From the NCBI RefSeq assembly GCF_001458695.1, contig NZ_LN885086.1, forward strand, positions 1,830,001 to 1,862,000: a stretch of 32,000 bases of DNA. The letters run 5' to 3'. The DNA is from Candidatus Nitrospira inopinata (GTDB lineage Bacteria; Nitrospirota; Nitrospiria; Nitrospirales; Nitrospiraceae). The notes below the pieces were generated by a model. That model saw only the letters and a program-made list of their open reading frames with translations, searched no databases and was not told where the DNA came from. Below are positions 5,423-20,823 of the stretch, piece after piece. Numbering within the stretch: the first letter of the stretch is position 1; every line of letters starts with the position of its first letter. A program made the position numbers and the translations under genes.

Positions 5423-5905
5423 ATGTCCGGATTGATGTCGGCAGATGATGTGTTTGCGAAGGCCGAAGCGGCGGCGGTGGCCGCCACGGGGCCGGATGAG
5501 CGGGCCTTGCAGATCGATTACGCGGTGCTCAAGGAAAACGTTCGCGCGGCGCTCGGCGACCGCAAGGTGGCGTTGTGCCACGTGAACAAGTTTCTGCCGG
5601 AAGGATACGAAGACCAAGGCCGCTTCAACATGGTGCTGCTCACGGCCGGCAACGTGGTGTTCGACATGGTCATCGGCGATTCCTATTTCCGCTACGACGT
5701 GGTGTCGGTCGGCCGGCTGGACAAGGTACAGCTCATCGACGCCGTGTGGGACAACCGGGAAAAACGGCGGGAAGAGCCGTTCTTAAGCCTGCGACTCATG
5801 CACGGCGATGAAGCGCATCTGTTGCTGGCGTTGGACGATGACGAGCGGAAGAGCGTCCTGGCCTTTGCCAGAGCCGTGACCGACGCCAGGAATCCGGAAC
5901 GATAA
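5423..5905 (+). CDS. Hypothetical protein
   Basis: 160 aa ORF with AAAGGAG upstream of the ATG and codon usage like its neighbours. No recognisable domain. Confidence 0.6.
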   Translation: MSGLMSADDVFAKAEAAAVAATGPDERALQIDYAVLKENVRAALGDRKVALCHVNKFLPEGYEDQGRFNMVLLTAGNVVFDMVIGDSYFRYDVVSVGRLDKVQLIDAVWDNREKRREEPFLSLRLMHGDEAHLLLALDDDERKSVLAFARAVTDARNPER

Positions 5906-5978
5906 TATCTTCGAACGGGAACGGCGCCGTCCCCACTCCATCGATGAACCGGTCTTCCGGCTCGGCTCATACTCAAGG

Positions 5979-7640
5979 TCAATACAAATAGATCGCGCCA
6001 CTATCCAAGTTTGGACTGTCCTTGAGAGGGCTGCCTACCGCGAGGGTATGGCCGTCGGCGGACAAGGAAAGGCTCACGCCAAACCAGTCGCCGGCTTCCG
6101 TATTCGAGGCCTTCACATAGGCCTGTTGGGTCCATGAATTTCCGATTCGAGTGAAGACATAGACCGCGCCGCTGTCGATGGCGCCGTTGTCGGTCTGGTC
6201 GCCGTTGATGCCGAGGGCGCGGCTGTCTTCCTGGAGCGCTCCGATCGCCAGGGTGCTCCCGTCGGCGGAAAAAGCCAGGGCGGTGCCGAACCAATCATCT
6301 GCCTCGGTGTTGGAGGCTTTTACATAGGCCTGTTGAGTCCATGTTCCTCCGCTGCGCGTGAAGAGATACACGGCGCCGCTGTCCGGAGCGAGATTGTTGT
6401 TCTGATCCCCATTGACGCCGATGGCGGCACTGTCTTCGAACGGCGCTCCAACCGCCAGGGTCTGACCGTCAGGACTGAGGGCCACTCGGAGTCCAAACCA
6501 ATCGTTGGATTCAGCGTTTGAAGCCAGCAGGATCGACTCATGAATCCACGAGCTGCCGTCAAAGGCAAAGACATGGACGACGCCGGCATCAAGACCGGCA
6601 CTGTCTGTGAGCGGCGCCCCCACTGCCAGGGTCCGACCCTCTGCCGAGAGACTCACGATCGTGCCGAACTGATCTCCGGCAGCCGGAGTTCCGGCTTTGA
6701 GCACAGCCTGTTGAGTCCAGATGCTGCCGGCCCGGCTAAAGAGATAGGTTGCGCCACTGTCGGGAGCAACGACATCGTTACGTGGCGCTCCAACGGCGAG
6801 GGTATGGCCATCGGCCGAGAGGCTCAGACTCGTGCCGAACTGTTCGCCCGCTTCCGGGGTGGTGGCAGTGAGCACGGCTTGCTCGGTCCAGACTCCTCCG
6901 GCGCGGACGAAAACACGCACGGCGCCACTGTCGATCGCCCCGTGGTCCGCTAATGGAACTCCGACGGCCAGGGTATTGCCGTCTTCGCTCAGCGCAAGGC
7001 CGAAGCCCAGCCAATCGCTCGTTCCAGGACTTGAAGCTCTCAGCTCGGCTTGTGGATTCCAATTGCTTCCGTTACGGACAAAGACATAGACGGCGCCGCT
7101 GTCAAAAACCGCGCTGTCTTCAAACGGGGCTCCGACGGCGAGGGTTTGACCATCGGCCGACAGTACGATGCTCAAGCCGAAGAGGTCGCCGGCTTGGCCG
7201 GCCGGAGTGGTCAGGTACCCAACGGCGGGGAGTAAGTCAGAGACCGAAACGGGGGCGGAGTCGGTGCAGCCGGCGCTGTTACAGGCCTGGACGATGTACC
7301 GGGCATTGACCCGGATGGGCAGAAAGGCGATATGGTCGTAGTCGGTCGTGTCTGCCGGGAGGGAAGCGATGGCGGAAAATCCAGCGCCCGGCGCCGGTTC
7401 TTCCAACAGTCGATACTCTGTTTCTCCGGTGACATCCTCCCACGTGAAGTGAAAGGTCTTGATCGCGGTCGGCGTCAGGGTGACGTTCAGAGGCGCAGCC
7501 GGGCGGGCAAGGCTTCTCCCCCTTCCGACACCGGCGCCGCCCCCACCGTCGGCGCAGGCGACCAGCCCGCCAATTACGGCGAGCAGGCCTATATTAAGAC
7601 TCGCCTTCGCGAGTTGATAGAAAGGCGAGACGGATTTCAT
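5979..7640 (-). CDS. FG-GAP repeat (integrin-alpha-like beta-propeller) lipoprotein with an N-terminal Fn3/Ig-like domain
   Basis: Lipobox LVAC. There are about seven repeats of the pattern FG..(L/V)(A/S)LSADG.TLAVGAP..D....DSGAVYVF. GGAGGA lies 8 nt upstream of the ATG. Confidence 0.85.
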   Translation of the reverse strand: MKSVSPFYQLAKASLNIGLLAVIGGLVACADGGGGAGVGRGRSLARPAAPLNVTLTPTAIKTFHFTWEDVTGETEYRLLEEPAPGAGFSAIASLPADTTDYDHIAFLPIRVNARYIVQACNSAGCTDSAPVSVSDLLPAVGYLTTPAGQAGDLFGLSIVLSADGQTLAVGAPFEDSAVFDSGAVYVFVRNGSNWNPQAELRASSPGTSDWLGFGLALSEDGNTLAVGVPLADHGAIDSGAVRVFVRAGGVWTEQAVLTATTPEAGEQFGTSLSLSADGHTLAVGAPRNDVVAPDSGATYLFSRAGSIWTQQAVLKAGTPAAGDQFGTIVSLSAEGRTLAVGAPLTDSAGLDAGVVHVFAFDGSSWIHESILLASNAESNDWFGLRVALSPDGQTLAVGAPFEDSAAIGVNGDQNNNLAPDSGAVYLFTRSGGTWTQQAYVKASNTEADDWFGTALAFSADGSTLAIGALQEDSRALGINGDQTDNGAIDSGAVYVFTRIGNSWTQQAYVKASNTEAGDWFGVSLSLSADGHTLAVGSPLKDSPNLDSGAIYLY

Positions 7641-9025: not shown

Positions 9026-9445
9026 TCAGATTTCTCCCCTGTTCACTTGCCGGACTCGTTCTGCCGGGATGCTGAGGGCGGCCAAGAGGTAGTCCTTCAA
9101 TTCGCTGCTGTAGGGCTGGGCGGCCAGGGCCCGCTGCATGCACAAGAGCCAGGCGTCTCGTTCTTCGTAGCCGATCGGAAAGCGCTTGTGCGCGCCGGGG
9201 ATACTGATCGGTCCGTAGTGTTGTTGAAATAGCTTCGGTCCTCCCAGCCAGCCGCAGAGGAAATAGGTCAGTTTTTTGCGCGACTCGGTGAGATCGGCGG
9301 GGTGCATGGCTCTGATGACCTGTGCTTCCGGCAGCCTCTCCATGTTGGCGTAAAATTCATCCACCAACTTGGTGATGCCTTCGAGTCCCCCCGCCGCCTG
9401 GTAGGGGGTAAGCGCGGCGTCGTTCTCTTGGTCGTGGCTGGTCAT
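9026..9445 (-). CDS. glbO: Group II truncated haemoglobin (trHbO-like)
   Basis: 139 aa. Typical 2-on-2 globin group II motifs are present: FY..M, LFLCGWLGGP..Y....G...(I/L)...H..F.I...E.D.WL.CM..AL. Confidence 0.8.
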   Translation of the reverse strand: MTSHDQENDAALTPYQAAGGLEGITKLVDEFYANMERLPEAQVIRAMHPADLTESRKKLTYFLCGWLGGPKLFQQHYGPISIPGAHKRFPIGYEERDAWLLCMQRALAAQPYSSELKDYLLAALSIPAERVRQVNRGEI

Positions 9446-9515: not shown

Positions 9516-9751
9516 TTACTCATCGTGGGATCCGATCCATACCCAAATGAAATCCGACCCATCCTCAACGGCTAACGCCCGGTGATGAGGTCCGACCCTC
9601 GCAGACCACGGTTTGCCGATTTTTTGAAGTGGAGCAAAGGGTATGCGGGATTCTCTTGCAAGGGGTCAAAGTTGTGTCGAGCCATGTCCTGGACCGATTC
9701 CGGAAGATCCGCAAAGAAAGTCCAGAACCGAGGCGTTGTGCGGTGCCTCAC
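9516..9751 (-). pseudogene. RelE/ParE-superfamily-like toxin, disrupted by a 1-nt frameshift
   Basis: GTG 9751 overlaps the antitoxin stop (GTGA). Frame 1 reads VRHRTTPRFWTFFADLPESVQDMARHNFDPLQENPAYPLLHFKK. After the A6 run (T6 at 9620-9625 on the + strand) the family-typical continuation IGKPWSARVGPHHRALAVEDGSDFIWVWIGSHDE* sits in the -1 frame. The span is 236 nt, which is 237 minus 1. Confidence 0.7.
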
Positions 9752-9948
9752 AGGTCCTTGCGCATCCCTTTGGCTTTTGCATCGAGCGCTTCACGCACCA
9801 AGCAATCCAGCTTTCCAGCTATGGAGTCGGCCTCGATTTCCTTGCTCCAACGCCCCCAATCCTTTTCTGACAGCCATCGGCCAAGTTCGGCGAATTGTTC
9901 CGGAGAGAGTTGCTCGATTTCCGTTTCGAGTTCATCTATCGTTGCCAC
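9748..9948 (-). CDS. Small antitoxin-like protein (addiction-module component look-alike)
   Basis: 66 aa from GTG 9948, with AGGGGAGGG 6 nt upstream. The sequence VATIDELETEIEQLSPEQFAELGRWL...WSKEIEADSIAGKLDCLVREALDAKAKG resembles small antitoxins paired with RelE/ParE toxins. It has a 4-nt overlap with the downstream toxin. Confidence 0.65.
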   Translation of the reverse strand: MATIDELETEIEQLSPEQFAELGRWLSEKDWGRWSKEIEADSIAGKLDCLVREALDAKAKGMRKDL

Positions 9949-10376
9949 GGATTTCCCTCCCCTCACTGATCTGGACCGCCAATTCCTCGGCTTGCGACCG
10001 GGAGAGGATCATTCATCGTAGGCCTTCAACGGTATTCAACAGTAGGCCCCGCATCGCAACCGCTGCGCCATATCACTCAGGACTTTGGGAGGGAACCGCT
10101 CGTTATGAGATGAAGCTGACGAGTGGTCCGCAGGATGGAGGATAGAGGCGGAGCTCGTTGTTTTTGCCGTCGACTGTCAGGGGATTCACAGGGCGGCAGA
10201 TTGTCGAGTCGGGAAACAGAAAGGGCACAGTCATATTTGCTCCAGATAGTGATTCACTTCATGTAGCACAAAGCCAAACGTCCCCTTATTCTCTCCCTAC
10301 CCGAGTATCGATTACGCCATGCATCCATGGGCTCATCATGTTCTCACCGTGTGCTCCCGACCTCTCGAATTGTGTA

Positions 10377-10436
10377 GGCTAACGCTAAAGCTCAGCCGCG
10401 CCGCGTAGCGGCGTCGGCTGGAGCGCCTTGTTGGGC
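10377..10436 (-). repeat. attC recombination site (60 bp), top strand on minus
   Basis: The minus strand reads GCCCAAC-AAGGC-GCTCCAGCCGACGCCGC-TAC-GCGGCGCGGCTGAGC-TTTAGC-GTTAGCC. It has RYYYAAC and GTTRRRY-type ends and imperfect inner arms, with two extra bases (T and G on the + = bottom strand). The stop codon of the 591-aa ORF lies 10 nt upstream. Confidence 0.85.
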
Positions 10437-10446
10437 GACAATCCCG

Positions 10447-12222
10447 TCATGACATCCGCTTTTCTATGCTCTCAAGCTCGTCGGCGACTTGTGCGCACAC
10501 ATGATGGAAGTGATTGGCGAACGTTTCATGCTCCATCAAAGCATTCTGCGCCAACTGCTGGGCCTCGCTGCCGCCGGCATGCCCCTTGGCTTTTGAGCGC
10601 AAGAGCTGGACTGTTCGCAAGCCGGCCAGCCTCCCAACCCCCGTGCTGGACTTGCTCAGGAGCTTTTCGAGCAACGCTATTGTCTTGTCCTCCTTGGCGT
10701 ATGAAACTTGCCCTTCATCTAGTCGAGTTCGGATCACTTTTGTTTCAAAGCCCTCGATAACCAGCTTTGCAAGATCCATGAATACCTCAGCCCATTCATC
10801 GCGACTCTCCGTTAGAGGCGTATTCACACGCTTAAGCAGCATCTCATCCCGAAGTGTCCACCATGCAACCTTGTCGTCGTGCCAGCGCTGAACGATAGAT
10901 AAGACCTTCTGCAGCGGCTGTACGAAGTTCACAAACTCGCCCTCGAAATCATTGATGAAGGCGCGTTTGGAGATACTGGCTTTCGGTGGCTCGTTGTAGG
11001 AGAGCCAGTGCAGCTGCTCCTTGTACGGAAGGCGGCGCAGGTAGCAGATGTAAGCGTGTACCTGACCCGCTTCGTTAACGTCGATTGCTTCAAGGTGCCA
11101 CGCTGCCCGGCATGAGACATCACGATCGCTCACTGTGTACTTGTCACGATCTGCCTTGTACTTCAGTAGAACTTCCGGCCCGAAGAACGCGGGCGATAGT
11201 TCGAAAGGCAGTGTGTTTTCCTTGGCCTGAAAATAGTCCGTCGTGGCCGCCGGGTCAGTGGAGATTCCCGTCACGCGCTGATTGCGCCAATCGTAGGCGA
11301 TGAACTCGACGTACTGCTTGTTCTTCCTTCCGAACCATCGGTCCGTGATACCCGTGAAGATAGCTTCCGGAGAGCGACGAGGGCGGATGATCTGTACACC
11401 CCGCGTGTAGGCCGCATAGCTAGGCATGACTTGCCGGCGGTAGAAGAAATCGGGCGATTCGATGATTTCCTGCGTCGGCCCCTCTGACCAGCCGGAGAAT
11501 CCGGAGCGCCGCAGCAAAGTGAAATCAAACATCCTTACGAGCGAAGCGTTGGACGCCGCAAGGTACTCCTCCAGCGGCGCCCACTTAAAGGAGACGAGTG
11601 CCATATTGCTGGCCTTGTCCTCGCGGCTGGTCACGGAAACAACGGGCTCAAGATCACCAAGTTCATTGAAGCGGCAGTAGGCTCGCATTTCGGGACGCCA
11701 GTGGATGTCGGTCAGATGCGCGTACTCCTGATGGAGCTCGTGGTAGGTGCGGCCCGGCCCAGTCCAGCCTTCGAACGTTCGGACGAAGATCAACTGCATG
11801 GCATTTTTCAGCGTGTTGGTGCCTGTTCCGCTCAGGCCTCGTTCGACCCACACGCCCTCGCACCCACCCCCGGTCACATAGCTGGCGATTGACGTGAAAG
11901 GCTTGAAGCTCCATTGCATCAGGTCTTGCTGGTCAACAGGTGCGAGCCGGTCATTCGGAACGGCGACCGAGTGGATCAACGTGTATTCACCCGACGCGTG
12001 AATGACCAGTTCATCGGCGCGGGCGTTCTTGCGCAGGAAATCGAGATGCGCCTCAGCCTCTATCCACTCGGAAAAGGGTTTGGAATCCGCCGGTACTTCG
12101 TCGAGTCTAGTGATTGCCTCAATCAGCTTCTTGTGTTCGTAATTGTGCAACCATTCCCTCCTGTTACTCGGCCTCAATGTGCCTGGCGTCGGCGCTCCGC
12201 TTGAGCGAGGGGTTAGGGTCAC
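10447..12222 (-). CDS. Large hypothetical protein (567-591 aa), cassette B gene 2, with a C-terminal Rx5H (HEPN-like?) helical region
   Basis: Long uninterrupted ORF with balanced amino-acid composition, unlike the Arg/Pro-rich shadow ORFs. The track start GTG 12222 has no SD, whereas TTG 12150 has AGGAGG 6 nt upstream. I saw no Walker A, TM segment or known catalytic signature. The C-terminus contains LRTVQLLRSKAKGHAGG. Confidence 0.8.
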   Translation of the reverse strand: MTLTPRSSGAPTPGTLRPSNRREWLHNYEHKKLIEAITRLDEVPADSKPFSEWIEAEAHLDFLRKNARADELVIHASGEYTLIHSVAVPNDRLAPVDQQDLMQWSFKPFTSIASYVTGGGCEGVWVERGLSGTGTNTLKNAMQLIFVRTFEGWTGPGRTYHELHQEYAHLTDIHWRPEMRAYCRFNELGDLEPVVSVTSREDKASNMALVSFKWAPLEEYLAASNASLVRMFDFTLLRRSGFSGWSEGPTQEIIESPDFFYRRQVMPSYAAYTRGVQIIRPRRSPEAIFTGITDRWFGRKNKQYVEFIAYDWRNQRVTGISTDPAATTDYFQAKENTLPFELSPAFFGPEVLLKYKADRDKYTVSDRDVSCRAAWHLEAIDVNEAGQVHAYICYLRRLPYKEQLHWLSYNEPPKASISKRAFINDFEGEFVNFVQPLQKVLSIVQRWHDDKVAWWTLRDEMLLKRVNTPLTESRDEWAEVFMDLAKLVIEGFETKVIRTRLDEGQVSYAKEDKTIALLEKLLSKSSTGVGRLAGLRTVQLLRSKAKGHAGGSEAQQLAQNALMEHETFANHFHHVCAQVADELESIEKRMS

Positions 12223-12234
12223 CGTGTGCTCGTG

Positions 12235-12873
12235 CTATTGCGCTCGGAACAGGTGCTTTAGATAAGGACGGAGTTGGGGAAACTCCGTTCGAGCCTCTTC
12301 GAAGTAGTCTTCGTATTGCGGCATTGCATCAACCAAACGCGGCTTAAGCGCAAGCTGTGCGTCAAGTTGCTGCCGAAGATGTGCCTCTGTCATCGCGCCC
12401 ATCGACCAGTATCTCGAAGGACGAAGGAACGGCTCGCGGTTATCCCAAACACATCGAGCCAGATCCGTAAACATGAATCTCCCATCCTCGGCTGGTGGTT
12501 CGTCGTCGGGTAGCAAGATGGCCATGCGAACTGGCGCGTGGCCATCCGAGCGCGAGAACTCGCGCTCATCATCATTACTATAGTCATAGCGTCCATGAAT
12601 CAGCAAGCCGCTCGACGGACAGCGAACTAAGGCCTCATGCTCAATCTCACCGGCCATTCCTCCAAGAAATGGAAGATATAACCTTGGGACAGTTAGTCGG
12701 TATCTTGCAATCGGGTCACCGCGCTTTATCCAGGCGTAGTTCGTTCTGTCTCGGAGCCCAGTGAGCGCGCCTGAGTGACTGAACGTACCCCCAAAGACGG
12801 CTGGTACCAGGAGCATCTTCGTGCCGAGGGTGACCCCGGCTGGAACTTCGCCTCTGCGGTATTGCTCAGTCAT
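12235..12873 (-). CDS. Hypothetical protein (212 aa), cassette B gene 1
   Basis: ATG 12873 has AAGGAA 5 nt upstream. The stop is 12 nt (or 84 nt) ahead of the next ORF's start. No domain recognised. Confidence 0.75.
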   Translation of the reverse strand: MTEQYRRGEVPAGVTLGTKMLLVPAVFGGTFSHSGALTGLRDRTNYAWIKRGDPIARYRLTVPRLYLPFLGGMAGEIEHEALVRCPSSGLLIHGRYDYSNDDEREFSRSDGHAPVRMAILLPDDEPPAEDGRFMFTDLARCVWDNREPFLRPSRYWSMGAMTEAHLRQQLDAQLALKPRLVDAMPQYEDYFEEARTEFPQLRPYLKHLFRAQ

Positions 12874-12932
12874 GTCGGTTCCTTGGGGGAGGGTCGGGAA
12901 GCGGGTTGCTACGCGAGCCGTTAGTTCGTGAC

Positions 12933-12996
12933 GCCTAACGCTCCGGTTCAGCGGCGGGCCGCGCAGCGGACCGTCCGCTGCAACCGGTTGTTAGGC
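12933..12996 (-). repeat. attC recombination site (64 bp), top strand on minus
   Basis: The + strand reads GCCTAAC-GCTCC-GGTTCAGCGG...CCGCTGCAACC-GGTT-GTTAGGC. The 7-nt ends are perfect inverted repeats. The inner arms pair with one extra base in the right arm of the + strand. The 98-aa ORF stop lies 9 nt away. Confidence 0.85.
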
Positions 12997-13005
12997 TCCC
13001 TTCGT

Positions 13006-13302
13006 TCACGTCGTGTGCTTCTGCACCGTGAACGTGCGGTCGATGAATATGTTGACCTCCGCATCGATCGACCCGCCAACGCCTGACCAGAAGTGGATTC
13101 TGAGCCGATCTCCTTCGGCGGTCAGGTCCAAGGCTGTGTTATCAAGACCGAGATCGAGCATGCTGTTCAGCTCTGCCACGATCGCCCACAACCGTCGGTG
13201 GAGGAGGTCCCTCACTTCAGAACCAATCTGGTGCTCCAGAGGTCCGAGTTGAGCGTTCAGGATGGAGACACGCTGCAAGAGGTCGTCGAATCGACTTGTC
13301 AC
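13006..13302 (-). CDS. Hypothetical protein (98 aa), cassette A gene 2
   Basis: GTG 13302 overlaps the upstream stop codon (GTGA, 13299-13302), suggesting translational coupling. No domain recognised. Confidence 0.65.
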   Translation of the reverse strand: MTSRFDDLLQRVSILNAQLGPLEHQIGSEVRDLLHRRLWAIVAELNSMLDLGLDNTALDLTAEGDRLRIHFWSGVGGSIDAEVNIFIDRTFTVQKHTT

Positions 13303-13964
13303 GACGGCGGCGACTCCCGTGTGACCGTCTCTGCGGATGTGATCTTGCCGGCAGCCACCAAGCGTACCAACGGCCGCTGTTCAAGCACGACAGCGGAGAC
13401 AAGCTGTCGCGTTTCCTTCTTCGTGTAGCCGAGTTCCTGCGCCAGACCGACGAACTGCTTGGCAATCTCGACCTGCAGCTGCTGGTTCTCAAGTTCGCGG
13501 CGTTCATTCTCTAACGAACGCTGGCGCCTTGTGGACCAGTGCTCGATGAGCCGAACCAAGAGATCCTTCAGGTGACCGACGATCTCGCCGATCCCGACGA
13601 GGTCCTTGATGCCGGGGGAACCGTAAAGCACGCGCTGCACGACCAAGCGCTCGTCTGGCTCCAGCAGTTCGGAGGCGACTGCGAAGGGGACCTCGCCGCG
13701 GCCCAGCAGCGGGGCACGCCCGGAGCGGAGGACCGACGGGGGAGCCAGTCGTGCCCAGGTGCGGAGAGACCTGAGCGATCGGGGAAACGGGGGGAAAGGC
13801 GCGTCCATGTAGAAGTCGCGCAACTCACGAAGCTCCTCGATCTCCAAGGCGAGCGCGAAACGCAGCGCGTAGAGGCGATCGAGTGCGTTGAAGGACGTCG
13901 CGAACTCGCCCGCCTCCCAAGCGCCATCGATGCCAACTCGGAGTACCTGCCGTTCCTCGTTCAT
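13299..13964 (-). CDS. Hypothetical coiled-coil protein (221 aa), cassette A gene 1
   Basis: ATG 13964 is only 22 nt from the attC core, with AAGAGG upstream. There is a central heptad-like segment, RRQRSLENERRELENQQLQVEIAKQF. No domain recognised. Confidence 0.7.
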   Translation of the reverse strand: MNEERQVLRVGIDGAWEAGEFATSFNALDRLYALRFALALEIEELRELRDFYMDAPFPPFPRSLRSLRTWARLAPPSVLRSGRAPLLGRGEVPFAVASELLEPDERLVVQRVLYGSPGIKDLVGIGEIVGHLKDLLVRLIEHWSTRRQRSLENERRELENQQLQVEIAKQFVGLAQELGYTKKETRQLVSAVVLEQRPLVRLVAAGKITSAETVTRESPPS

Positions 13965-13986
13965 ACCGTTGATGCCTCTTTTTGGA

Positions 13987-14056
13987 GCCTAACGTTCGGG
14001 TTCAGCCGCATTGCGGAGCACAGCGGAACAACGTCGGCTGCAACCCGTTGTTAGCC
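13987..14056 (-). repeat. attC recombination site (70 bp), top strand on minus
   Basis: The + strand reads GCCTAAC-GTTCG-GGTTCAGCCG...CGGCTGCAACC-CGTT-GTTAGCC. It has the same architecture and the same side for the extra base as the attC at 12933-12996. Confidence 0.85.
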
Positions 14057-14138
14057 AGCCGGCGAAGACGGTATAGGCACTAACGTGCACGCACATATCG
14101 GCAGACCAGCGCACCCGTGCTTGCTTTAGCAGTCGATA

Positions 14139-14668
14139 TCAATTCGAACGGTATTGCTTTCCCGTTTGTGGTAAAGATCGTCTACCCCCGCCAAGAATCA
14201 TTGGCCCGATCGTCAGCAATAACTCATCGACAAGATCCGCAGCGAGCAACGACCGAACCATCATCGCGCTGCCGTACACATAGATGTAGCCCCCCGGCTG
14301 CGCCCGCAGGTCGGACACTTTTTGCAAGAAGTCATCACCACGGATGATCGTCGTAGGATGCCATGTGATGTCCTTTTCGCTGAGCGTGTTGGACACCACG
14401 TACTTCTGCACCTTGTTGATCCAGTCTGAGAACGGGTCTCCCGAGCGGCTTGGCCAAGCGGCGGCGGACGTTTGATAGGTGGGCGTCCATGCAAGAGCGC
14501 GTCACTCTGCTTGGCGAGGTCGTCAAACGTGCCGCCGATCACTTCTGGGTCAAAGTACTTCAAAAACCATCCGCCATGGGCAAAGTCGCCGTCCGTGTCT
14601 TCCTTCGCCCCACCTGGAGCCTGGACAACACCGTCCAAGCTGATGAATTCAGTGACTAGCGTCTTCAT
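14139..14668 (-). pseudogene. Dihydrofolate-reductase-like (RibD C-terminal domain family) gene with a 1-nt frameshift
   Basis: The first frame reads MKTLVTEFISLDGVVQAPGG...SDALLHGR. The family-typical continuation TYQTSAAAWPSRSGDPFSDWINKVQKYVVSNTL...YVYGSAMMVRSLLAADLVDELLLTIGPMILGGG is in another frame. The switch is at about 14479-14484 (a C run). The span is 530 nt, which is 531 minus 1. Confidence 0.75.
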
Positions 14669-14704: not shown

Positions 14705-14793
14705 GGCTAACTATTGAGTAGATTGGTCAGCCTATCCCCGCCAACCGGTTTCTTGGTTGCGGCCGATCCTAATAAGCGTTGCCCATACTTAGC
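14705..14793 (-). repeat. Degenerate attC-like imperfect palindrome
   Basis: GGCTAACTAT (14705-14714) pairs with ATACTTAGC (14785-14793). The inner arms ATTGGTCAGCC / GGCCGATCCTAAT pair with bulges. The spacers are non-canonical and one core reads CTTAGC rather than GTTAGC. Confidence 0.3.
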
Positions 14794-14861
14794 AAGACTT
14801 TTCTCACCCCTCTGGAGCCTGACAAACACCGCATGCTAGGTCAGCCTATCCCGGCGTGCCG

Positions 14862-15086
14862 TCACGGCTCTCCGCCCCGCCTGTCAGGGGGTGGATGGTC
14901 TATGTCCGAGGCGGTCAGCCGGGCTGTGGTTATGATGACGTATTGATGTCGGCGGGCAAATTCAAAAATGGCGCGATCGTCGAGCGCTCTGCCAGGGTGA
15001 TCGTGGATGTGGATGGCATCGTGTCCGCGTTCGCGCAGCCAACCAGCGAGGCCTGGTGGGAGGTTGGCGTCCACGAGAAATGTCAT
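14862..15086 (-). pseudogene. DUF5615-type (PIN-like, Mut7-C-related) toxin gene, probably 3'-truncated
   Basis: MTFLVDANLPPGLAGWLRERGHDAIHI...DDRAIFEFARRHQYVIIT matches the DUF5615 N-terminal pattern. The usual C-terminal third is missing (74 aa). The gene abuts a partial attC-arm copy. Confidence 0.55.
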
Positions 15087-15286
15087 GTGGCTTGTGCCGG
15101 CATGATCGTATGGTCCAAGTATGCAGCGGCGTAGGTGATCGCGGCTCGATCGTGATGGCGCAGATATTTCCATCCTTGTCGATATCGAGTTGAGTGTCTG
15201 CATCCAAATCTCTTGTCCCTGACACCGGTGCCGTTTTGAATTCGATGTCCAGTGGGTCGGTGTCGTTGAAAATGTTTGATTGTCAT
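15083..15286 (-). pseudogene. DUF2283-type antitoxin gene with internal frame disruption
   Basis: The ATG frame gives MTIKHF. The conserved core FNDTDPLDIEFKTAPVSGTRDLDADTQLDIDKDGNICAITIE is in a different frame, reached after a T4 run. The stop (ATGA overlap with the DUF5615 start) is back in the first frame. Confidence 0.6.
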
Positions 15287-15468
15287 GGCTTGAACCCTCG
15301 GTCGAAAAAGACATTGTGGACTGTTTCACGATCGGACAGTAATGCCACCAGCACGTATCTGTTTCCCATTTCTTTTATCGGGGCCCAGCGGCGGATGCGT
15401 CCGTCTTTCTGAACCGTTTCTCCACCGGGCTGACGGTTAGGAATGCCGGCCGGCGTGGTATGCCAACA
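15283..15468 (-). pseudogene. DUF4258-like toxin gene remnant, 5'-truncated
   Basis: An open frame without a start codon reads ...GETVQKDGRIRRWAPIKEMGNRYVLVALLSDRETVHNVFFDRGFKP*. Its stop overlaps the DUF2283 ATG (ATGA). The pattern matches the DUF4258 C-terminal half as I recall it. Confidence 0.5.
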
Positions 15469-15470
15469 TC

Positions 15471-15509
15471 ATCTGAAAAATGCATCTGAAAAATACGTCT
15501 GAAAAATAC
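15471..15509. repeat. Three tandem 13-nt repeats (ATCTGAAAAATGC / ATCTGAAAAATAC / GTCTGAAAAATAC)
   Basis: Read directly. The repeats abut the truncation point of the DUF4258-like remnant. Confidence 0.9.
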
Positions 15510-15686
15510 GGAGAGATTGTTGCGTGGCCTTCTTCGCCGGTCAATCTTCTTGCTGGTGTCACGGCGACGCGCGAACGAGAATGACTTCCTTGAATCAACA
15601 GGTGTCTATCGCGAAAACGAGGGAGAAAAGTATTTCATCTAAGCCGAGATGCGCCCATGGAAGGGGGGGGCTAGACGGATGAACGG

Positions 15687-18849: not shown

Positions 18850-20823
<1,974 letters not shown>

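Follow-up and report, generated by a model that had tools for sequence, protein, structure and literature searches.

We analysed 32,000 nucleotides from the Candidatus Nitrospira inopinata genome (NZ_LN885086.1, positions 1,830,001 to 1,862,000; hereafter the window, whose own numbering is used for its features). Positions 12939-13992 of the window are a genuine integron gene cassette, which lies on the minus strand between two homologous attC sites and carries two real, co-inherited and translationally coupled genes, here called A and B. The type of cassette is known; both of the protein families that it encodes are unannotated. We tentatively read the pair as a mobile two-gene conflict module of the toxin-antitoxin (TA) or abortive-infection/phage-defence type, in which A would be the effector or core and B its neutraliser or regulator, and we put this reading somewhat below an even chance. 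It draws on the domain fusions of A relatives, on the genes that surround them and on a similarity lead to the phage-defence protein PD-T4-10B.

Boundaries of the cassette and its attC sites

The upstream attC site (13987..14056, 70 nt, minus strand), which is part of the preceding RibD_C-like cassette, was recognised by its GCCTAAC...GTTAGCC cores, by an alignment of three sites and by its hairpin fold. Its R′ core GTTAGGC, read from 13993 to 13987, forms the 5′ boundary of the A/B cassette, with the crossover between 13993 and 13992. A leader of 22 nt (13965..13986, minus strand), in which a Shine-Dalgarno-like GAGG is found at 13975-13978, separates the attC core from the ATG of gene A. Gene A (13299..13964, minus strand; open reading frame (ORF) from 13964 to 13299) encodes a protein of 221 aa, and gene B (13006..13302, minus strand; ORF from 13302 to 13006), which starts with GTG, one of 98 aa. 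The reading frames end 9 nt short of the cassette's own attC (12933..12996, 64 nt, minus strand), a perfect match to RYYYAAC...GTTRRRY with the cores GCCTAAC...GTTAGGC, and the cassette ends with the G at 12939, which belongs to the R′ core of that site. The G|TT crossover points delimit the cassette at 12939..13992, the same coordinates at which the original prediction, made from the sequence letters without database searches, had placed an exactly attC-bounded cassette. The distance of 22 nt that it gave between attC core and first start codon (13965-13986) was exact, and the ORFs of 221 and 98 aa that it had described were found, on the minus strand, with the 4-nt GTGA overlap at 13299-13302.

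A third attC, at 10377-10436, is homologous to both sites flanking A/B. In the alignment the three window attCs had a mean column identity of 77%, and all three have cores of the RYYYAAC/GTTRRRY type. DNA folding revealed imperfect hairpins at all three; for the plus strand of 12933-12996 the folding energy was -29.3 kcal/mol (z = -7.8). Both cassette-flanking sites contain an unpaired 6-nt/5-nt spacer, and in the plus strand all three sites carry a single extra base in the 3′ arm, which is G at 10377-10436 and C in the flanking two. The site at 10377-10436 is also more degenerate, with cores left unpaired by the predicted fold. Spacer asymmetry and extra base agree, position by position, with the geometry of the bottom strand of the aadA1 attC. 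Because of this agreement the plus strand is presumably the recombined bottom strand, and therefore both genes read toward their own attC, as in a normal cassette.

The three window attCs served to build a covariance model (R1). Its matches in the window, at 13980-14063 (minus strand, 84.5 bits) and 12926-13003 (minus strand), are circular, since the model includes the same sites. R1 also detected attCs in unrelated loci, which is an independent result and not due to chance.

Coupling and co-inheritance of A and B

The plus-strand TCAC at 13299-13302 reads GTGA on the minus strand, so that the start of B and the stop of A share four nucleotides. Pairing was assessed by profile scans of every fetched locus. 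Thirteen other loci, which represent Nitrospirota, Planctomycetota, Gemmatimonadota, Acidobacteriota and metagenomes, have B directly after A: Nitrospira moscoviensis (L001), metagenome-assembled genomes (MAGs) of a Planctomycetaceae (L006), a Gemmatimonadaceae (L007), an Acidobacteriota (L009) and a Bryobacteraceae member (L005, in which B lacked annotation), and the metagenome contigs L013-L018, L024 and L026. In these paired loci the identity of A to the window protein goes down to about 51%. With the window included, 11 of the 14 loci have ATGA or GTGA at the junction; the other three are also tightly coupled, by TGATG-type alternatives, a 2-nt spacer (L015) or a 14-nt overlap (L017). Pairwise dN/dS ratios (NG86) of 0.04-0.14 in A and 0.12-0.24 in B show that both are protein-coding genes under strong purifying selection, B evolving about twice as fast as A. 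Conservation of the pair in other genomes and a coding signal in both ORFs had been proposed as checks in the original prediction, and both were observed. B is limited to the subfamily nearest the window A protein.

Spread between arrays and phyla

In the Planctomycetaceae MAG the pair lies exactly between two attCs (5875-5985 and 6989-7101 of L006), in an array where the covariance model placed at least eight attCs on the same strand. B is directly followed by an attC scoring 52 bits (6986-7062 of L001) in N. moscoviensis, and the region there resembles an integrative and conjugative element (ICE), with genes for ParB_N, a type IV secretion system (T4SS) coupling protein and a VapC/MazE pair. 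The Bryobacteraceae region contains PRTRC-type genes (PRTRC_E, Prok_Ub, Prok-E2_D and ThiF) and a gene for a single-stranded DNA-binding protein (SSB). A cassette with 96% protein identity to that of the window occurs on the metagenome contig L013, where the downstream attC begins with the same 30 nt as in the window and the upstream attC differs. This contig is 1066 nt long, and both of its ends lie inside attC sites. Several cluster members come from contigs of 1057-1086 nt, about one cassette in length, among which the ends of L013 were those inspected. The window, L006, L007 and L013 share a conserved 5′ boundary and leader (GTTAGGCTCC...GAGGCATCA...ATG), the leader being 22-24 nt long in these loci. 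In the ICE-like loci L005 (GCTAGGCTCC) and L001 the boundary GTTAGGCTCC is recognisably decayed.

A is 81-96% identical across different phyla, and its distribution is patchy. The shared attC context, the exchanged upstream attC of L013 and the decayed boundaries indicate that the pair, at this level of identity, reached at least four phyla in the form of an integron cassette, and that its boundaries then decayed in place. Some decay is also seen at the boundary in L007. At about 5960-5980 of this locus, CCCTAACACATAGTTAGGC precedes the 5′ boundary of the cassette and the two attC cores are only 5 nt apart, as though the upstream attC had lost its entire hairpin.

No sigma-70-like site was found in the cassette, and the conserved leader of 22-24 nt leaves no room for a promoter, so that the cassette appears to have none of its own. 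Dependence on read-through transcription, which the original prediction had proposed, is plausible.

Protein A and its family

An exact-sequence look-up identified the product of gene A as CUQ66885.1/WP_062484842.1 and that of gene B as CUQ66884.1/WP_062484840.1, both annotated as 'hypothetical protein' (Candidatus Nitrospira inopinata). The cassette had been called an orphan in the original prediction; the term holds for the missing annotation but not for kinship, as both proteins have many homologues (57 clusters for A, at 29-96% identity, and 26 clusters for B).

The AlphaFold2 model of A (pLDDT 74, pTM 0.75) begins with a strand (residues 5-12) and a long helix (18-53). The linker that follows (54-100) is variable, basic (isoelectric point (pI) 12) and modelled with low confidence. 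It leads to a β-hairpin (108-125), which carries the signature Y-G-S-P-G-x-x-D-L-x-G-x-G-x-x-x-G-H-x-K-D (114-134), and the C-terminal part consists of three helices and a final strand (208-215). The description of A as a coiled-coil protein, given in the original prediction, was borne out in part: the ERRELENQQLQVEIAKQF stretch is present at residues 154-171 and falls into a modelled helix (153-178). The overall pI of A is 6.8. Across 74 diverse family members only W16, S116, G118, D121 and G124 are invariant.

An exhaustive profile search gave 1018 representatives of the A family at E < 1e-3 (clusters at 50% identity), most commonly 190-235 aa in length. No curated name was found among the members examined, and no Pfam domain among the precomputed ones of 56 full-length homologues. 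Judged by these similarities, A is a member of a very large unannotated family. Searches of the PDB with sequence profiles from the A1, A3 and A5 alignments returned chance-level matches only, to helical or designed proteins. A further homologue search with a diverse profile added no new names or domains, and the queries P0094, P0145 and P0191 gave nothing relevant against plasmids or phages.

Several candidate assignments were rejected. A HAMP domain label, which JGI/IMG attaches to P0003, P0004, P0009 and other members, is not accompanied by a HAMP profile match; it is likely an annotation artefact, which probably comes from a helical, coiled-coil-like segment. A Ser-His-Asp hydrolase composed of S116, D121 and H131 was discarded because the motif differs from G-x-S-x-G and H131 varies within the family. 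A membrane effector was dismissed as well, since neither A nor B has a hydrophobic segment; both are predicted to be soluble. Comparison with hhalign showed that A and B are unrelated to each other.

Protein B is acidic (pI 5.15), and its alignments contain an invariant G-L-D-N-T-A-L-D-L motif. The AlphaFold2 model (pLDDT 88) has two helices followed by four strands.

Fusions and genomic company of the A domain

In rare members of the family the A domain is joined to other domains. P0190 combines EAD11 with A and is followed by a P-loop protein that has weak, below-threshold matches of the nSTAND3/NB-ARC/NACHT type. In the published scheme EADs are adaptors, whose homotypic interaction links effector or signalling domains with a core NTPase (PMC7159879). 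No copy of EAD11 was detected in the NTPase fragment adjoining P0190, either with Pfam or by BLASTP against P0190. P0164 (TIR_2 + TPR + A) is encoded beside an N6 methyltransferase and an IS66 element, and P0057 (A + SCP2) beside a 1077-aa kinase/STAND-like protein that matches the PD-T4-6 and MkoA models. P0197 combines Biotin_lipoyl with A.

Some stand-alone A genes also have neighbours of the defence or toxin type. In Ralstonia the A gene adjoins a type IV methyl-directed restriction enzyme and an FRG/PDC-S15 protein. Another adjoins a MazF-like gene, recognised by eye from its sequence, and a third a NERD protein and a large ORF on the opposite strand, by eye the S subunit of a type I restriction-modification system. 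In a Psychroserpens MAG (4431-5838 of L012) two overlapping genes, encoding 269 and 201 aa, lie upstream of a stand-alone A homologue. The 201-aa product matches the N-terminal half only of the PADLOC candidate PDC-S54 (positions 1-203 of 410, E = 2e-40). The lengths of this product and of the 206-aa A homologue sum to about that of the PDC-S54 profile (410).

Among the 74 diverse family members, six match the PADLOC model PDLC04024 and five PDLC04026, both of which represent PD-T4-10_B; other PADLOC families gave only three scattered matches. In P0094, the sole member examined in this respect, the match covers residues 93-156 and profile positions 211-274 of 367. The matched stretch is the signature hairpin with the helix that follows, and therefore the match is not just a helical, low-complexity one. 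PD-T4-10, from E. coli ECOR65 (Vassallo et al. 2022, PMC9519451), consists of two overlapping ORFs with no predicted function. Its PD-T4-10B protein is toxic and is neutralised by the first protein, and the pair confers abortive-infection protection against T-even phages (PMC9519451). We regard homology between the A family and PD-T4-10B as a weak lead, not as a result.

A conflict module as the preferred reading

If the pair is a conflict module, A would be its conserved effector or core, a soluble α/β protein whose functional centre would be the S-P-G-x-x-D-x-x-G hairpin with the helices after it. In other lineages the same domain would be used alone, or linked to STAND-like NTPases through the EAD11 adaptor. 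B would be a lineage-specific partner, and termination-reinitiation at the ATGA/GTGA junction would keep its synthesis in a fixed ratio to that of A. It would bind A and keep it inactive, or tune it, until a signal, for example phage infection or the element being lost, sets A free. As the cassette has no promoter of its own, transcription would come from the upstream cassettes. The same array holds other TA-type cassettes, namely a DUF5615/PIN gene and, by eye, RelE/ParE-like remnants.

Type II TA cassettes of the relBE, parDE and higBA types are familiar from chromosomal integrons, such as the Vibrio superintegrons. A and B resemble them as two small co-directional genes with a 4-nt overlap in one cassette; they are adjacent, coupled and co-inherited, and their array contains PIN-type and RelE/ParE-like cassettes as well. 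They differ in having no similarity to known toxins or antitoxins in Pfam, NCBIfam, PADLOC, PHROGs or the PDB, by sequence or by fold, in the large-then-small gene order and in the frequent occurrence of A alone. They also differ in transcription: in place of an own promoter with autoregulation by a DNA-binding antitoxin, the cassette has a 22-nt leader with no promoter-like site.

PD-T4-10 is like A/B in consisting of two overlapping ORFs without recognisable domains, and unlike it in size, the PD-T4-10_B profiles having 353-367 positions and A 221 aa. In the EAD-coupled NTPase conflict systems (Kaur, Burroughs, Iyer and Aravind 2020, PMC7159879) the likeness lies in P0190 and its P-loop neighbour; the window A protein, in contrast, has neither an EAD nor an NTPase neighbour, and there is one fused example only. 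Small defence systems are frequent among integron cassettes of unknown function, as outlined in two preprints (bioRxiv 10.1101/2024.07.02.601719; bioRxiv 10.64898/2026.03.17.712381). Like A/B, the phage-defence cassettes described there are compact, without known function and located in integron arrays. Those of the former preprint come from plasmid-borne mobile integrons and those of the latter from Vibrio genomes.

A number of results weigh against a conflict module. Scans of Pfam (E ≤ 0.01 for A), NCBIfam, PADLOC and PHROGs gave zero matches for either protein, and Foldseek found nothing better than E = 0.17 with the A model against PDB and BFVD or with the B model against PDB. Neither protein is similar to known antitoxins, and the B model has no ribbon-helix-helix, helix-turn-helix or AbrB-like fold, that is, no recognisable DNA-binding fold of an antitoxin. 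A search for relatives in the INPHARED phage, IMG/VR and PLSDB plasmid collections found none. The window A protein itself does not match PD-T4-10_B in PADLOC, and the best match in the family (E = 2.9e-4) is weak and given by coordinates only, with no residue alignments. In PD-T4-10 the toxin is the second gene, whereas A is the first; B has no PADLOC match and no evidence of kinship to PD-T4-10A, and the partner lies downstream and not upstream. Each A-domain fusion is a single example, and the neighbourhoods, from about ten loci, are anecdotal and without a statistical test. The A/B cassette, in which there is no space for a promoter or operator, is unlike self-regulated TA cassettes in this respect.

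The occurrence of A without B is a further point of this kind. Ralstonia holmesii has A without B at 65% identity, and B is missing beside all five distant A homologues with enough flanking sequence (L010, L011, L012, L029 and L030). Most members of the A family appear to stand alone. That A is so often alone is difficult to square with a constitutively active toxin.

The original prediction had likened the coupled ORFs to TA and other two-component conflict modules, while recognising no TA family in them. The latter statement stood: no assignment was obtained for the window proteins from Pfam, NCBIfam, PADLOC, PHROGs or the PDB, and the profile and structure searches that it had called for brought up no characterised family. 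The former gained circumstantial support from the neighbourhoods of mobile-element and defence type, from the EAD11 and TIR + TPR fusions and from the weak PD-T4-10B similarity; the widespread A genes without B speak against a classical partner that is toxic at all times.

One may go further and suppose that the A domain defines an unnamed superfamily of immune effectors or toxins, which includes PD-T4-10B and acts alone, recruited to STAND NTPases by EAD11, or paired with B. We consider this extension rather doubtful. If true, the cassette would be a minimal integron-borne abortive-infection system, shuttled between phyla.

Alternative readings

The alternative that survives best, although we think it somewhat unlikely, is that the pair is ordinary accessory cargo without a conflict function, the two proteins perhaps forming a small complex whose role would be regulatory, stress-related or structural and of use in certain environments. 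Integrons and ICEs would carry it as they do most cassettes of unknown function. According to literature abstracts, most integron cassettes have no known function, and a cassette without a promoter is normal for cargo. The absence of enzymatic or toxin signatures, with just five invariant residues in the whole A family, would fit such a role, and so would the lack of homologues in phage and plasmid collections; the weak PD-T4-10B similarity does not fit. In Polaribacter some stand-alone A genes lie between housekeeping genes, and in L026 the A-B pair is likewise inserted between housekeeping genes. Elsewhere, however, A repeatedly keeps company with defence or toxin genes and with immune-type domains (EAD11, TIR, STAND), which would not be expected of neutral cargo. 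The 81-96% identity of A across phyla, together with its patchiness, also points to selection for mobility of the kind typical of selfish or defensive modules.

Clearly less probable is a TA pair of reversed polarity, in which B would be the toxin and A the antitoxin or regulator, encoded first as in the canonical type II order. The gene order and the 4-nt overlap would then be those of classical type II operons, and the conserved helix-G-Y-helix of A (residues 172-195) superficially resembles a helix-turn-helix; the cassette, however, offers no promoter or operator for A to regulate. The succession of two helices and four strands in B recalls, in topology only, small RelE/ParE-type toxins. 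Foldseek nevertheless found no RelE/ParE or other toxin match for B, despite a pLDDT of 88, and B is acidic, whereas RNase toxins are typically basic. A could exist alone in the manner of orphan antitoxins, and B never occurred without A in the loci examined; it is B, however, that evolves faster, the pattern expected of antidotes. Two properties of A relatives also speak against this polarity: the weak PADLOC link ties them to a toxin model, and after the EAD11 adaptor A occupies the position of an effector or signalling domain.

That the pair is an anti-defence or establishment module, which would help an incoming ICE or cassette to overcome host immunity with B as an acidic inhibitor, is very unlikely: B is indeed small and acidic, and the pair does occur in the ICE-like region of N. 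moscoviensis, with ParB_N and T4SS coupling-protein genes, and in the Bryobacteraceae region with PRTRC-type and SSB genes, but most occurrences are in integron arrays or chromosomal islets and not in leading regions, no homologues were found in PLSDB plasmids or phages, neither protein resembles a known anti-defence protein, and the associations with EAD11, STAND and TIR favour the side of host immunity.

The conflict module remains our preferred reading. Most non-clinical integron cassettes have no known function, and some have recently been shown to be compact phage-defence systems. A/B is a clean, well-bounded candidate of 1 kb that has moved between arrays and phyla, and its A family comprises more than 1000 clusters unnamed in databases. 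Should the weak link to PD-T4-10B and the associations with EAD11, STAND and TIR hold, a large set of unannotated proteins would acquire a name and an effector role open to testing, and the view of integrons as defence banks would come to include environmental nitrifiers. Should they fail, the pair is one more well-documented cassette of unknown function.

The surrounding array and the rest of the window

Among the 30 large ORFs scanned in the 32-kb window, none had a tyrosine-recombinase match in Pfam. Because no integrase was found among them, the array is classed as a CALIN, a cluster of attC sites without an integrase, and not as a complete integron. Two CALINs were already reported in Ca. 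N. inopinata with IntegronFinder 2.0 (PMC9024848). The order of the minus-strand array, read from Pfam matches and by eye, is: a PIN-type gene, the RibD_C-like gene, attC, A + B, attC, a 212-aa and a 591-aa gene, attC, and TA-like remnants.

The RibD_C-like gene (14139-14668, minus strand) ends just before the attC at 13987-14056 and constitutes the cassette immediately upstream of A/B. It consists of overlapping ORFs of 90 and 135 aa, both of which match RibD_C (PF01872), and looks like one dihydrofolate-reductase-like gene split by a frameshift. The 155-aa ORF of PIN type (14862-15329, minus strand) matches DUF5615, PIN_10 and Mut7-C with residues 82-135 only, in the first half of each profile. 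It probably comes from a TA cassette whose PIN-type toxin gene has been truncated, and what is left of the antitoxin may be fused to it.

On the other side of A/B, the neighbouring cassette (10437-12938, minus strand) contains a 212-aa gene (12235-12873) and a 591-aa gene (10447-12222), the products of which had no match in Pfam, NCBIfam, PADLOC or PHROGs. It is, beside A/B, a second cassette of two genes without known function. At about 9565-9950 (minus strand) a small antitoxin-like ORF containing EQLSPEQFAELGRWLSEKDW and a RelE/ParE-like ORF were recognised by eye, the latter ending at a GTTAGCC core (9565-9571). This segment is probably a decayed TA cassette at the low-coordinate end of the array, where it adjoins a globin gene (9026-9445).

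Two short palindromes on the minus strand, at about 14707-14745 (GGCTGAC...GTTAGCC) and 14830-14870 (GGCTGAC...GTCAGGC), each preceded by GGGATAGGCTGACC, lie upstream of the RibD_C-like gene and resemble attCs in miniature or with an internal deletion; one of the two scored only 8.9 bits with the covariance model. Farther upstream, before the PIN-type gene, three tandem copies of TTTTTCAGA(C/T)G occupy 15474-15510 (minus strand). The sole sigma-70-like promoter match on that strand, at 15544-15516, is close to these repeats, and the area could be a promoter/operator that drives read-through into the array. Outside the array, a TPP riboswitch (RF00059, 20915-21017, minus strand, 66.5 bits) was found directly upstream of thiC (18850-20814, minus strand), which is an ordinary arrangement.

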